A DNA stretch of 64,000 bases, taken from Candidatus Eiseniibacteriota bacterium. GTDB taxonomy: Bacteria; Eisenbacteria; RBG-16-71-46; JABDJR01. Location: the NCBI GenBank assembly GCA_963783375.1, contig CAWANH010000017.1, forward strand, positions 64,001-128,000, given 5' to 3'. A model generated the notes under the pieces. The model was not told where the DNA came from. It was given only the letters and a program-made list of their open reading frames with translations, and did not search any database. Positions 34,129 through 40,151 of the stretch are shown in pieces. The position numbers and the translations under genes were made by a program. Each line of letters starts with the position of its first letter. The first letter of the stretch is position 1.

Positions 34129-37100
34129 TTACTCCCGCTTCCAGTCCGGGAGCCGCCCCGGAGTCCAGGGCGCCCCCGCCGCCTCGGCCTTCTGCTCCAG
34201 GCCCTTGAGGTCCACCTCGATCAACGTTCGCAGCTTCCCCAGCACGTCCTCGAACTGCGCGGCGGCGATGTCGTAGTTCTCCCGGTGGGTCCTGGTGGGG
34301 GCCGAGGTGGACTCCCATTCCCCTCCCACGATCCGGTTCACCCGCTGGGTGATCGACGGGGAGGTCGGCTCCTGGCGCTTTCGCACCGTCTTGTCCCCGG
34401 TGAGGACGGTCATGAGGTCGTCCAGCCGGATCTCCAGGGCGCGGGTCTCCTCCAGGAGAGAAGGATCGGCTCCGGGGGCCTCGGCCAAGGCGCGCTTCAG
34501 GTAGTCGAGCCGGGTCTTGGCTTCGCCCGCCGCTTTCACCGCCCCCAACACCGCCCGCTGCAACCGGGCGGTGGATTCCTGGAAGGCCACCAGCGCGTTG
34601 CGATCCGTGGCCGGGAGCGTGCTCCGGCCCACCGGGGACGCCTTGAACGACTGGGGTCCGGCGAGCGGGGTCTCCTCGCCGTTTCGAAGGAGAGCCATCG
34701 AGACCGAGTAGGTCCCGGGAGCGGCCAGCGGCCCCTTGGGGGCGCGCCAGGACTCCTCGCCGGAGGAGGGCGGCTTCAAGCCCACCGGATTGGGCGCCGG
34801 ATAGCGGAGGTCCCAGGCCACCCGATGGAACCCGGCGGACACCGGGCCGGCGATCCGGCGGACGACGTTCCCGTCGGTATCGGCGACGGTGAGAACCACC
34901 TCGGGCTTGGTCTCCCGGTCCTCGGCCCGGAGCGAATCCCACGGCGGGTAGTAGACCGGTTTCCCCTCCTTCACCAGCTTCTTCTCCCGGGCTTCCCGCT
35001 CCTCCTTCCGGGTCTTGAACGGGTCCCTGAGGTAGTAGGTGAACACCGCGCCGAACGGGGGATTGGGGGCGGTGAAGAACGCGTCGCCCAGGCTCCCCTT
35101 CTCCTTTCCGCCGTAGGGGGTGGCGGGAACGTACATGGGGGCGTCGCGGACCGGGAGGAGCGCCGCTTTCCGGGCCAGGAACGCCTCGTTCACCGAGCGG
35201 AGGGGCGTATAGTCGTCGAGAATGTAGAACCCCCGGCCGAACGTGCCGGCCACCAGGTCGTTCTCCCGGCGCTGAACGGCCAGATCGAACACCGCGATGG
35301 TGGGCATCCCGCCCTCGAGCTTCACCCACCGCTTCCCGCGGTCCACGGTGAAGAAGAGCCCGAATTCGGTTCCCGCGAAGAGGAGATCGGGATCCTTCCC
35401 GTCCTCGGCCAGGGAGTAGACCGTGCCTCGCGGGGGGAGATCGCCGCCGATCGGGGACCAGTTGCGGCCGCGGTTCGCGCTCACGAAGAGGTACGGCTTG
35501 AAATCTCCCGCCTTGTGGTTGTCGAACGCCGCGTAGACCCGGTCCGGATCCGCCTGTGAGGCCAGGATCCGCGAGACGTAGGCCCGGTCCGGGACGCCGG
35601 AGATCTTCTCGATCTTCCGCCAGGTCTTCCCGCCGTCCTCGGAGACCTGGATCAGGCCGTCGTCGGTCCCGACGTACAGGAGGCCCTCGGTGAGCGGCGA
35701 CTCGTCCACGGTGACGATCGTGCCGTAGACCGAGGTGGAGGTGTTCTTGGCCACCGCGTCCACGCTCCAGACCCGGCCCATGATCGGGAGCCGGTTCCGG
35801 TCGAGGTTCCGGGTGAGGTCGGGGCTCACCGGGGTCCAGGAATCTCCCCGGTCGTCGCTTCGGAAGAGCCGCTGGGCCCCGAAGTAGAGCCGGGTGGGGG
35901 AGTGGGGGCTCACGAAGAGGGGCGCGCTCCAGTTCCAGCGGAGCGGCGCGTCGCCGGCGCCGGGTTGAGGCTGGATGTCGATCGCCTCGCCGTTCCGGCG
36001 GTCGTAGCGCACCAGTCCCCCGTACTGGGACTCCGAGTACACGATGTTCGGGTCCTTGGGGTCGATCGCGGCCTGGAACCCGTCTCCCCCCACGGTCCGG
36101 AACCAGTCGGCGTTGGTGATCCCGTGGACGGTGTTGGTGCGCGAGGGCCCGCCCAGGGTATTGTTGTCCTGGGTTCCCCCGTAGACGTGATAGAAGGGCC
36201 GGTCGTCGTCCACCGCGATCTTGTAGAACTGGGTGATCGGGAGGTTGGCCTTGAACTCCCAGGCCCGGCCCCGGTCCCAGGTCTCGTACAGCCCGCCGTC
36301 GCATCCCGCCACCAGGTGGTCGGTGTCGGCGGGATCGATCCAGAGCGCGTGGTTGTCCACGTGCTTGTACTTCGCCGGCACCCGCGTGAAGGTGGCGCCC
36401 CCGTCCTCGGTCACCATCAGATGGGTGTCCAGGGAGTAGACCCGCTCGGGGTTGTCGGGGTCGGGCACCAGCTCCTGGTAGTACTGGGGGCTGGAGGAGA
36501 TGTAGTCGTTCATCTTCTTCCAGTGGCCCCCGGCGTCGCGGCTCCGGAAGAACCCGCCTTCCTTCCCCGAGGCCTCGACGATCGCGTACACCACGTCCGG
36601 GTTCGACGGCGCGATCGCGAGCCCGATCCGGCCCAGGTCCCCCTTGGGAAGGCCGTTGGTGAGCTTCGACCAGGTCGCTCCGCCGTCGGTGCTCTTGTAC
36701 AACGCCGATTCGGGGCCGCCGTCGACCAGGGTCCACACCGTCCGCCCGCGCTGATAGGCCGAGGCGTACATGACGTCGGGGTTCCGGGGGTCGAGGACCA
36801 GGTCGCTCACCCCGGCCCACTTGCCGGGGGAGAGAATGCGACGTCCAGGTCTTGCCGCCGTCGTCGGTCTTGTAGAGGCCGCGGTCGCCGCCTCCCGACC
36901 ACAACGGGCCCTGGGCGGCCACGTACACCACCTCGGAATTCCGGGGGTCGATCACGATCTTCCCGATGTGCTCGGAATGCTCCAGGCCGACGCGCGTCCA
37001 TCCCGTCCCCCCGTCCACCGACTTGTAGACGCCGTCCCCGTAGCTCACGCTCCGCTGGCTGTTGTTCTCCCCGGTGCCGACCCAGACCGTGAGCGGGTTC

Positions 37101-37452
37101 TTCGGATCCACGGCGACGCAGCCGATGGAGTAGGAGCCGGCGGTGTCGAAAACCGCCTCCCACGTCGTGCCCGCGTTGTCGGTCCTCCAGACGCCCCCCG
37201 AGGCCGCGGCCACGAACCAGACGTCGGGCTTTCGCGGATCGACGGCGATGTCGCCCACCCGGCCGGAGTTCATGGCGGGGCCGATGCCGCGTAAGGTGAG
37301 ACCCTTGAAGGTGGAGGGTTTCATCGGGTCCTCGGTCTTCTTATCCGAGGCCCCGGCGGGGAGCGCGGCGCGGCCAGGGTCAGGGCGGCGGCGAGAGCCG
37401 CGGCGAGGGCGAAGGCCGGGGCGGGCGGGAACGGGCGGGCGAACGGTCGCAT
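34129..37452 (-). CDS. Secreted VPS10/BNR-repeat beta-propeller protein (sortilin-like/glycosyl hydrolase-like); two apparent frameshifts (~37370, ~36841)
   Basis: ATG 37452 after GAGGAGG gives signal peptide [27 protein letters not shown]; [28 protein letters not shown]; many SxDGGxTW Asp-boxes; GG(T)QDN; [12 protein letters not shown]. Confidence 0.85.
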
Positions 37453-37632
37453 CGATCTTCCTCCTCACGAGTCGCGGGCCGGGGCGCGCGGGAGCGGCCG
37501 GGCCCGGCCCCGGCGGCGGGCCCGCGGCATTGTACCGGATGACGGAGCGCGGTGCATGCCGGCCGGCGGTTCATCCCGATGCCCGTGGGGCGCGGCCTTG
37601 GGGCCGGTGTCCTTTCGTCTCGGCGCTCGCGT

Positions 37633-37895
37633 GCCCGGCCCGGGTCGTCGCGGCCATGCCCCGATCCTCCTCGGGCGCGAGCGCTCGGACCGTCCACCGG
37701 ACGCTCACTCGCGCTCTCCCGCCCGGCCCGGGTCGTCGCGGCCATGCCCCGATCCTCCTCGGGCGCGAGCGCTCGGACCGTCCACCGGACGCTCACTCGC
37801 GCTCTCCCGCCCGGCCCGGGTCGTCGCGGCCATGCCCCGATCCTCCTCGGGCGCGAGCGCTCGGACCGTCCACCGGACGCTCACTCGCGCTCTCC
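37633..37895. repeat. Perfect tandem repeat, 3 x 88 bp, hairpin-rich, bracketed by inverted flanks (REP/MITE-like)
   Basis: Units start at 37633, 37721 and 37809; internal stems CGTCC-ACC-GGACG and GCGCGAG...CTCGCGC; flanks TTTCGTC (37613-37619) and GACGAAA (37899-37905). Confidence 0.9.
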
Positions 37896-38094
37896 TTCGA
37901 CGAAACGGGGCCCGTTCACTCGGCCACCGCGAACCTGGGGGCAGTGCAAATCATGCCCGTTCACTCCCATTTCGTCGAAGAGACCACTTCGTCGGATCGG
38001 GGCAGGTGTCCGCTCCTTCCGGGTCGGGCACCCGGAGTCCAGGATGGGGGGCAGGGCCGGCCCATCCGGCCCCCCCCGGGATCGTGGCCGCCGT

Positions 38095-38857
38095 GCTTCC
38101 CCGGGGAAGCAATGTTCGCAATAAAGGTGGCGCGATGGGACCTGCGAGCGCTCAGCCGTCGAACGTTCGAGCGGCCCGGGTTCCATCGGAGCCGCGGGCG
38201 GGGGCACGGACGCTTCCCCGGGGAAGCAATGTTCGCAATAAAGGTGGCGCGAACGGACCCGCGCCCCCGTCGGCCGCCGGTCACCGCGTCGCGCTAAAAA
38301 AGCTATCTTGCACCAAGTGTACCCGGGTACTCGAGAATACAAACTCACGGGTTGTGGGAAACGCGGGCGGTGCCCGCGACCAAAGATCACCCGGGTACAC
38401 TGCCGCGCGTAGGTCCAGGCCGTCTCGTTGGCGGGCGGGGACACGGATGCTTCCCCGGGGAAGCAATGTTCGCAATAAGGCGCCGGTCGTGTTCCGCCGC
38501 TCAAACGGAGCTCGCAATCAGGGGTTCGGGATGGATGGAGCGCGAACCAGCCCCGACGCCGGTTTCGCCGTCGAGCGGACAACCCGCGCGTTTGGCAGGC
38601 AGCCCCGGGCGGAGTTGCACCCGGGTGCAAAACGTTCACAAAGAATGGTTCCGCTGGTGTTCCCCCAGGTGAACAGGGTTCGCAATAGAGTCCCGCGCAC
38701 GCGCCCCGCAGGGAGGCCCCGGCGTGCTTCCCCGGGGAAGCAATGTTCGCAATAGAGCGCCGGTCGTGTTCCGCCGCTCAAACGGAGCTCGCAATCAGGG
38801 GTTCAAGGACAGCGGGGGCCGCTCCGGGGCCGGCCGAGGAAGTTCACCCGGGTGAAC
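38095..38857. repeat. Cluster of 29-bp units built on 16-bp CCCGGG-centred palindromes
   Basis: GCTTCCCCGGGGAAGCAATGTTCGCAATA exact at 38095, 38212, 38449 and 38726; variants at 38317, 38385, 38491, 38615, 38659, 38768 and 38842. Confidence 0.88.
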
Positions 38858-38957
38858 CGTGGCCGTACCCCGGACCTGCCACGATTCCGCGCGCACGGTC
38901 CCCGGGCGGGACCGCCCGTCTCGGACGGACTACCCCGGACGAACTACCCTGCCCCGG

Positions 38958-40151
38958 CTACTCCGGCCGTGGGGCGCCCTTCCGGCTCCCGGCGTAGATC
39001 TCGAAGAGGAGGAACCGGAGCGCCAGGGACCCGCCGCCCACCGCCAGGCGACGCTTCGGCTTGAGCCCGACCGCCTTCTCCAGCCCGCCGCGGGGGAGCA
39101 CCAGGGCCAGGCGCGTTCCGGTAGCGTGATGCTTCACCCGGTGGACGAACTCGCGGAGGAGTTCGGCGGCGCTTTCGCGGTCGGAGAGGCGTTCGCCGTA
39201 GGGGGGATTGCTCACGATCCACCCACCGCCGGCTTCGATGGAGAGCGCCTCCCGCCGTTCGAGGCGCACCGCGCGCGCCACACCGGCTTTCGCCGCGTTG
39301 CCCCGGGCCACCGCCAGGGTGGTCTCCGAAACGTCGGAGCCTCGGATGGGGTGGGGTGGGGCCGGCAGGCTTTCCGCGGCCGCCCGCTCGAGTTCCCGTT
39401 CCAGGGGCCGCGCGCACTCCGGGAAGAGCCGATGGGCCGCGAATCCGCGGGCCGGCCGGAGGAGCCCCGGCGCCCGCCGCGTGGCGATGAGCGCGGCTTC
39501 GATGACCAGGGTGCCGCTCCCGCAGAAGGGATCGGTGAAGAGTTCGCTCCCGTCGTAGCCGGCGAAGCGGAGGAGCGCGGCGGCCCGGTTCTCGCGCAGG
39601 GGGGCTTCGGCCCCTTCCTCGCGATAGCCGCGGCGGTGGAGCGGCTCCCCCGAGAGATCGACCGAGAGCTCGCATCGCCCCCGGTGGAAGAACGCGGTGA
39701 GCCGGACGTCGGGATCGCGGCGATCCACGTCGGGACGGGGGAGTCCCCGGTGACGGAACTCGTCGCAGATCGCGTCCTTGATCTTGAGCGGGGCGAAGGA
39801 GAGCTTGTAGTCGGTTCCCTCGACGCTCCCGGCGGCGTGGATGGCGATCGAGCGCGAAGGGGGAAAGAGGTCCGGCCAGGGGATCCGGCGCACCTGGTCG
39901 TAGAGCATGGCCTGGTGGCGCGCCGAGAACTCGCGGAGGGAGAGGAGAAGCCGGGAGGCGATCCGGGAGCGCACCATCACCCGGGCCGCCGCGGCCCAAT
40001 CGCCGTCGAGCACCAGGGGCCCGCCCGGGGTCGGCTCGGGCTCGAGGCCGAACTCGCGGAGCTCGTCGAGCAGCAGCGCTTCCAGACCGGGCACGGTGGT
40101 GACCAGGAATCGGTGGGGGCCGGCGAGGGTCGCTTTCCGGGATCTGGGCAC
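38958..40151 (-). CDS. rlmL: THUMP-domain rRNA guanine methyltransferase (RlmL-like)
   Basis: GLEALL..EL, SRIASRL, IKDAICD, DLSGEPLHRRGYR, APLREN, DPFCGSGT, NPPYGERL. Confidence 0.85.
   Translation of the reverse strand: MPRSRKATLAGPHRFLVTTVPGLEALLLDELREFGLEPEPTPGGPLVLDGDWAAAARVMVRSRIASRLLLSLREFSARHQAMLYDQVRRIPWPDLFPPSRSIAIHAAGSVEGTDYKLSFAPLKIKDAICDEFRHRGLPRPDVDRRDPDVRLTAFFHRGRCELSVDLSGEPLHRRGYREEGAEAPLRENRAAALLRFAGYDGSELFTDPFCGSGTLVIEAALIATRRAPGLLRPARGFAAHRLFPECARPLERELERAAAESLPAPPHPIRGSDVSETTLAVARGNAAKAGVARAVRLERREALSIEAGGGWIVSNPPYGERLSDRESAAELLREFVHRVKHHATGTRLALVLPRGGLEKAVGLKPKRRLAVGGGSLALRFLLFEIYAGSRKGAPRPE

Follow-up and report, generated by a model that had tools for sequence, protein, structure and literature searches.

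A dispersed array of 16-bp palindromes in a Candidatus Eiseniibacteriota genome: likely orphan binding sites of a multi-copy DUF222-HNH nuclease

The 64,000-nucleotide stretch of Candidatus Eiseniibacteriota DNA analysed here (hereafter the window) contains at 38095..38857 a tight cluster of palindromic sites, which an earlier note had read as a possible loading array for a ParB- or Noc-like protein encoded elsewhere. The question raised by this locus is therefore what the sites are and which protein reads them. All eleven site positions listed in that note proved correct when re-checked in the window sequence. Four exact plus-strand units, each a perfect 16-bp palindrome GCTTCCCCGGGGAAGC followed by the tail AATGTTCGCAATA, are present at 38095..38123, 38212..38240, 38449..38477 and 38726..38754. 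The same core recurs, as claimed, in four sites to which no strand is assigned: GTGTACCCGGGTACTC (38317..38332, one arm mismatch), GATCACCCGGGTACAC (38385..38400, mixed half-sites with three arm mismatches) and the perfect variant palindromes TTGCACCCGGGTGCAA (38615..38630) and GTTCACCCGGGTGAAC (38842..38857), both with no mismatches. It does not recur in the imperfect plus-strand site GTTCCCCCAGGTGAAC plus tail at 38659..38687, which has two mismatches and the core CCCAGG rather than CCCGGG. Two decayed plus-strand units were confirmed at 38491..38518 and 38768..38795, 42 bp past the third and fourth exact units, respectively; both sit in an 80-bp duplication (38448-38527 and 38725-38804, 98%), the first copy of which begins with the third unit. 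A spacing of 42-44 bp was found in 3 of the 10 neighbour intervals and the others measure 64-124 bp, so that the regularity is weaker than had been implied.

The pattern KYKYMCCCGGGKRMRM matched six times in the window, always within the array stretch, against 0.11 matches expected from shuffles. The array is non-coding: a self-trained gene caller made no call in 36810-38958, of which 36810-37452 is filled by the 5′ end of a VPS10-like gene. An Rfam scan of the region gave nothing above chance and a tRNA scan found none. Folded as a single strand the array gave a z of -2.75, which is expected of repeated palindromes and is thus not informative. Parts of the array (38498-38727, 38305-38478 and 38106-38252) were base-identical in short contigs from three public runs, which rules out an assembly artefact.

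The array occupies a 1.5-kb gap between two minus-strand genes outside the element, namely a gene for an RlmL-like THUMP methyltransferase (38958..40151), about 100 bp past whose stop the array starts, and a gene for a VPS10/BNR-repeat protein (34129..37452). The latter is frameshifted in the assembly near 36810-36840; the frame is whole in the relative G002 (1185 aa) and a run contig is one base shorter at 36840, so that an assembly indel is likely. Adjoining the array is a feature that the earlier note had missed, a threefold 88-bp tandem repeat (37633-37895) included in a companion dispersed element at 37589..38059, to which no strand is assigned. Close copies of this element lie at C28:713k, 754k, 1498k and 105k, and it is related to an element of about 135 bp upstream of two of the nuclease genes described below. 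In G002 the companion element occupies the same position, within which the contig ends. The rlmL-VPS10 interval of G001, a member of the same genus, contains no palindrome and holds a TetR-like and a desaturase-like gene instead (by eye); with two other genes in it, it is not a clean empty site.

The host genome (4.7 Mb, 69% GC) carries the same sites throughout. GCTTCCCCGGGGAAGC is its commonest perfect 16-bp palindrome, with 33 exact copies, and GTTCACCCGGGTGAAC is the third commonest, with 17. A degenerate CCCGGG-centred 16-mer matched 127 times in 51 loci on both chromosome arms (control, 3 matches), and a weight matrix gave 50 loci, 36 of them intergenic and 20 with several sites. Most sites (108 of 127) are extragenic. 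By gene calls from a simple hexamer model of our own, convergent gaps contain clusters about six times as often as other gaps do (11/138 versus 21/1466). The window array itself is a mosaic of patches common to other arrays: pieces of 45-237 bp from its gap match some twenty other places in the genome, and the segment 38127-38268 recurs in a cluster at C17:20.4 kb (88%). In 55 of 57 cases the symmetry of perfect sites reaches only 0-2 bp past 16 bp and the arms meet without a loop, a limit more in keeping with a protein footprint than with a hairpin. This one genome contains several different perfect variants side by side, which calls for either a tolerant reader or a symmetrising process. Distances between sites tend towards multiples of about 10.5 bp (p 7e-4 for 83 spacings; p 0.1 for the 34 unique ones). 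The tail has an inverted repeat of its own (31 bp, at C28:1664901-1664933), and where it flanks the 16-mer on both sides a 42-bp palindrome results (C29:1192508-1192549); this symmetry of the tail may explain the 41-42-bp period.

An overrepresented word of the HIP1 type was considered and rejected, the observed/expected ratio being 0.93 for CCCGGG and 1.25 and 1.24 for the 8-mers CCCCGGGG and ACCCGGGT. Other repeats were also noted. A second abundant perfect 16-mer, CGCCGAGGCCTCGGCG, is singly dispersed over 27 places (e.g. C28:55598 and C29:206248), 10 of them outside called genes and some in the terminus zone, and no partner was found for it. Unrelated intergenic repeats of about 120-180 bp with inverted ends occupy 11 gaps (C1:79680, C28:225305, C28:464037, C3:256192 and seven more), and tandem repeats at C29:1090597-1091296 and 1125808-1126784 appear by eye to have been put together from the ends of tRNA genes.

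Inspection of the genes next to the palindrome sites revealed a multi-copy gene whose product, 450-560 aa long, has a helical N-terminal part joined by a low-complexity linker to an HNH domain at the C-terminus. Five copies are close and have an HH..N..N..H motif, one of them being frameshifted in the assembly; three more are distant. Each of the five close copies has a site no more than 350 bp upstream (150-330 bp from the start), compared with 52 of 3579 genes (1.5%) by a loose pattern with 263 sites; the close copies share ancestry and thus represent three or four independent cases rather than five. The upstream sites precede a sigma-70-like promoter, as judged by eye. The C28 and C29 copies are accompanied by the palindrome-plus-tail unit of the window and by the companion element, the C3 copy is flanked by the GTGTACCCGGGTACTC 16-mer of position 38317, and the C1, C22 and C3 copies also have a site in frame within the linker. 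None of these genes lies on the contig of the window. The three distant, longer genes (C29:17990-20584, C26:14981-17482 and C28:882.6-885.1 kb), at least two of which have a doubled N-terminal domain, show no evident shared palindrome. The proteins of the host genome fall below the Pfam model for DUF222 and were placed in that family through their homologues: in an alignment of 105 of 117 homologous proteins, all 105 matched HNH (PF01844), 30 matched DUF222 (PF02720) and 35 weakly matched HTH_ParB. Searched against PDB sequences, the family profile matched the HNH domain alone.

Structure prediction suggests what the N-terminal part may do. Its model (pLDDT 93.5) had as its four best matches in VIA the structures of ParB 6s6h (Z 7.8, rmsd 3.0, 98 aligned), Spo0J 1vz0 (7.7), KorB 8qa8 (7.0) and 1r71 (6.3), while the ten best Foldseek rows were all ParB, Spo0J or Noc, with a TM of 0.70-0.72 by target for the Noc-NBS complex 6y93. 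These matches are modest (Z 6.3-7.8, rmsd 2.7-5.9, Foldseek E 0.02-0.1), a Z below 8 and a Foldseek E above 0.05 being values that common helical folds can reach; proteins of the ParB/Spo0J/Noc/KorB group consistently ranked best, in both programs and with both models. The family profile aligns the motif WTKxR with AGHAR of the host's own ParB, and the last arginine of the motif (R98), nearly invariant in the family, falls at the position of R204, which the available part of PMC7383237 gives as a DNA-contacting arginine conserved in ParB and Noc. At the specificity residues of the helix-turn-helix, which the earlier note had proposed comparing, the DUF222 domain matches neither protein: against Q173/K179/K184/R201, the Noc-NBS specificity residues named in the same part of that source, it has Thr at the 201-equivalent position (profile alignment) and Lys/Arg at the 173-equivalent position (by eye). 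A homodimer was predicted with a score of 0.81, compared with 0.00 for the best of three controls (contacts agreeing to at least 98%, pLDDT 89); among solved structures, 20 of 30 pairs and 1 of 23 monomers attain the mark used, and the predicted interface is an antiparallel helix 10-40. The N-terminal 135 or so residues are thus predicted to fold as a ParB DNA-binding domain and to dimerise, and a dimer with two helix-turn-helix heads would read a palindrome, which makes the clusters likely docking sites of the nuclease. The expectation of a ParB-like reader encoded elsewhere was accordingly supported for the predicted fold of the likely reader; the fold belongs, however, to a DUF222-HNH nuclease without a CTPase domain and not to a ParB or Noc paralogue.

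The association extends to other genomes. We examined 60 relatives, of which 10 have a close homologue of the nuclease (E at most 2e-20). At least 11 sites were present in 7 of these 10 (11-65 sites) and in none of the 50 relatives without a close homologue, where the maximum was 7 sites; the seven site-rich genomes fall in two families, so these counts overstate independence. The three other genomes with a close homologue gave 0-2 pattern matches; the genes of G046 and G055 have CCCGGG variants outside the search pattern and the gene of G015 has a GCCGGC-core site. Favoured variants differ by lineage (GTTTACCCGGGTAAAC in G001, GTTTCCCCGGGGAAAC in G003, GCTCACCCGGGTGAGC in G004 and TTGTACCCGGGTACAA in G020). 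When distinct domains were compared, 40 of 51 WTK-clade loci had a CCCGGG site nearby and the remaining 11 had none; such a site was near 7 of 39 loci outside the clade and in 16% of random windows. Loci of distant clades, sampled like the others as a subset of mostly best-scoring homologue copies, carry 16-mers with CCGCGG, CAGCTG, TCCGGA, AGCGCT or TTCGAA cores, often at least two per locus, and many have none. On a tree the site cores cluster by clade (23 changes, compared with 36 when shuffled), a signal caused by near-copies and not proof of co-evolution. In G013 (L027 and its paralogues) the very codons for the HNH zinc-finger motif CRVPGC spell the palindrome.

Homology between some gene copies also ends at the palindromes. 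Among 21 pairs formed by 7 of the 11 G001 copies, homology starts 3-11 bp outside the upstream palindrome in 12 and stops within 4 bp of the centre of the downstream palindrome in 7, and in the single G038 pair (1/1) it starts, at the left end, at the first base of the palindrome. Such ends were not seen in pairs from G003, G004, G013, G020 or the host genome. The tail is far more restricted than the palindrome: GTTCGCAATA occurs only in the host genome (60 units) and G002 (14 units) among 61 genomes. The exact palindrome-plus-tail unit gave no hits in viral contigs and none in metagenome contigs. A degenerate form found 21 stretches in GTDB genomes, 10 of them from one uncultured MAG; the other 11, single hits in unrelated taxa, were treated as chance.

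Taken as a whole, these observations make it very likely that the nuclease gene and the palindrome repeat belong together, and a putative direct binding of the palindrome by the nuclease is probable. A little less firmly, we favour reading the window array as one of about twenty multi-site clusters, an orphan set of the nuclease's likely binding sites that has spread in a REP/BIME-like manner. That the nuclease itself drives the spreading is a putative step to which we give slightly less than an even chance. In the mechanism that we propose, the dimer would bind the palindrome through its two predicted ParB-type heads, and the sites by the promoter and in the linker, whose position is observed, could direct the protein to the locus that encodes it. 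Nicks or cuts that the tethered HNH domain may make close to occupied sites would then be repaired from a different locus with such sites, and this repair would carry patches of sites, or sometimes a whole palindrome-bounded gene, to new places. The array in the window, with no nuclease gene on its contig, could be such a footprint or an empty landing pad. More tentatively, and with the balance somewhat against it, DUF222-HNH genes may form an undescribed class of selfish element, in which a ParB-fold dimer guides the HNH domain to palindromes that mark the element's ends, arrays are landing pads or footprints, and the recognised site is clade-specific and can be re-tuned.

The alternative that survives best is that the sites are ordinary REP/BIME-like hairpins, acting as terminators or RNA stabilisers and spread in some other way, into which DUF222-HNH genes and IS110 elements merely insert. 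Such hairpins would agree with the mostly extragenic position of the sites, with the turnover of the tail at species level and with mosaic clusters that include companion elements, as BIMEs do. The enrichment in convergent gaps would likewise fit a terminator role of the REP type, and in G001 an IS110-family transposase gene (PF01548, E 5e-13) lies inside the palindrome cluster downstream of DUF222-HNH in two copies (L104 and L105); given this enrichment and this insertion, the nuclease gene might be a passenger with ordinary repeats as its targets. Against this, a search for the Y1/RAYT transposase (PF01797) gave no matches in the host genome, which is 97% complete, and the palindromes are loop-less, with arms that end at 16-18 bp. 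The tag GTAG/CGTC, by which REPs are defined in the available part of PMC3733652, does not abut the palindrome: the 5′ hexamers of 33 units end in CGT, GAT, GAC, AGT, TGT, CCT or GGT and the 3′ side reads NNNGTTC. The in-frame sites in the nuclease linker, the differences in core between nuclease clades and the scarcity of the repeat in all 50 relatives without a close homologue also speak against this alternative, and we regard a purely REP-like origin as unlikely.

The palindromes could instead serve nucleoid occlusion or chromosome organisation, like Noc-NBS or SlmA-SBS sites, with a host protein or a domesticated DUF222 protein as reader and with exclusion from the terminus. The earlier note had proposed mapping the sites relative to oriC and ter; on such a map, none of the 36 intergenic loci falls in C29:0-1 Mb around the GC-skew maximum at 496 kb, a zone that holds 279 of 1632 gaps (P 0.001, the zone having been noticed before its P value was tested). 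With a looser motif 3 of 73 loci fall there. In G001 a single locus out of 34 is closer than 500 kb to leuS (P 0.003), leuS being assumed from synteny to mark ter in the relatives, and a gap in G003 is suggestive. NBS sites are likewise dispersed except near ter, according to the available part of PMC7383237, and the lean of the spacings to about 10.5-bp multiples would also suit an organising role. However, sites were found 100 kb from leuS in G004 and 3 kb from it in G013, the orthologous interval of G001 lacks the array, the host has no Noc-like paralogue, and other dispersed repeats are similarly scarce in this zone (1 of 31, P 0.004, many of the 31 being related to the palindrome element; 0 of 11 for an unrelated repeat family). 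The zone itself (C29:1-1,000,000, with two Xer-like recombinase genes near the skew maximum) has many tRNA and housekeeping genes, a strong strand bias and almost no dispersed repeats. A repeat-poor, housekeeping-rich terminus is the reverse of the usual picture. In our view the void is a conserved region in which insertions are few, and we consider a nucleoid role improbable; that this genus co-opted terminus-avoiding arrays for a Noc-like job is more doubtful still.

The original reading, a ParB-loaded centromere or secondary parS array, has been largely refuted. It drew on the 16-bp palindromes, some of them 42-44 bp apart, and on a core that presumably resembles that of the Noc NBS. The host genome has a single ParB_N match above the Pfam cut-off, a complete CTPase-HTH-dimer protein at C28:768 kb, beside which lie canonical CACGTG-core parS sites at C28:767846, 769549 and 770202; parB and parS adjoin dnaA and the GC-skew minimum, placing oriC at C28:778 kb. 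Canonical parS was also present in 6 of 6 relatives searched. A by-eye match to the numbering in the available part of PMC7383237 gives this ParB Arg at 173 and Gly at 201, as in a parS-type protein. The listing of ParB and Noc paralogues proposed earlier thus returned this one ParB; the ParB_N profile search found no Noc paralogue in the genome, and its only other hit was weak (C1:364-1044, E 0.002), covered the N-terminal part alone and lay beside a methylase-like ORF. With true parS sites at oriC, and with the CCCGGG word dispersed over 51 loci on both arms and lacking from the G001 orthologous interval, a centromere is very improbable here. SOS boxes have the form GAAC-Nn-GTTC, which part of the unit resembles, and clusters were seen just downstream of two of the three dinB-like genes (C28:219822 and C28:1317478). 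Both features would suit an array of operators through which LexA or another transcription factor regulates the neighbouring VPS10-like gene. The clusters are, however, biased towards convergent gaps, in which one would expect no promoter, and neither palindrome nor tail was found by eye in the 220 bp upstream of lexA, recA, uvrB and the three dinB-like genes, which leaves operators the least probable explanation of all.

If the association of the DUF222-HNH nuclease with its palindrome holds as proposed, it would represent a partnership of the REP/RAYT kind with other components, a set of naturally occurring ParB-fold specificity variants and a compact site-directed nuclease. To our knowledge DUF222/13E12 is a large multi-copy family with no known substrate; a named domain, a 16-bp site and clade-matched variants now make its function testable. 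The window array is one copy among many, and its value lies in the evidence it gives of site spread far from the gene. No published DUF222 binding site or gene-palindrome pairing was found among titles and abstract openings, a scope mostly outside the subscription literature, and the available parts of PMC12704722, PMC3592412 and PMC3733652 mention HNH fusions or REPs and not a DUF222-palindrome pairing.

Several known systems resemble this one in part. With REP/BIME/REPIN-RAYT systems it shares short extragenic palindromes that are mosaic, biased to convergent gaps and lineage-specific, that flank the gene of an associated nuclease and that are hit by IS110; it differs in that this genome has no tag, loop or Y1 enzyme, and in that the partner is an HNH nuclease with a ParB fold predicted to read double-stranded DNA and with in-frame sites inside its gene. 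ParB-parS, Noc-NBS and KorB-OB offer the 16-bp palindrome, the same predicted DNA-binding fold and dimer, an arginine equivalent to R204 in the numbering given in the available part of PMC7383237 and, for Noc-NBS in the same part of that source, dispersal with a gap at ter, which here is seen in the host genome and G001 though not in G004 or G013, and which other repeats show as well. The nuclease, in contrast, has no CTPase domain and so no clamp loading or spreading; its gene is multi-copy, patchy and fused to HNH, it would dimerise through an N-terminal helix, and the true parS sites are elsewhere. The mycobacterial 13E12/REP13E12 family has the same DUF222 and HNH domain pair, is also multi-copy and, according to the available part of PMC13157036, is linked to rearrangements and coincides with inversion breakpoints in M. 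tuberculosis; the description given in that part includes neither a cognate DNA site nor a ParB fold. Free-standing HNH homing endonucleases are similar in having a site-directed HNH domain, a separate DNA-binding domain and a gene that would spread through repair, whereas in the present case a large number of short sites remain next to the gene and within it, copies would spread from one locus to others that are not allelic, and no empty allele turned up, none of the run contigs spanning the array. Looked at for the defining features of REP/RAYT and of ParB/Noc, the system falls outside both; it is REP/RAYT-like in its layout and ParB/Noc-like in its recognition.
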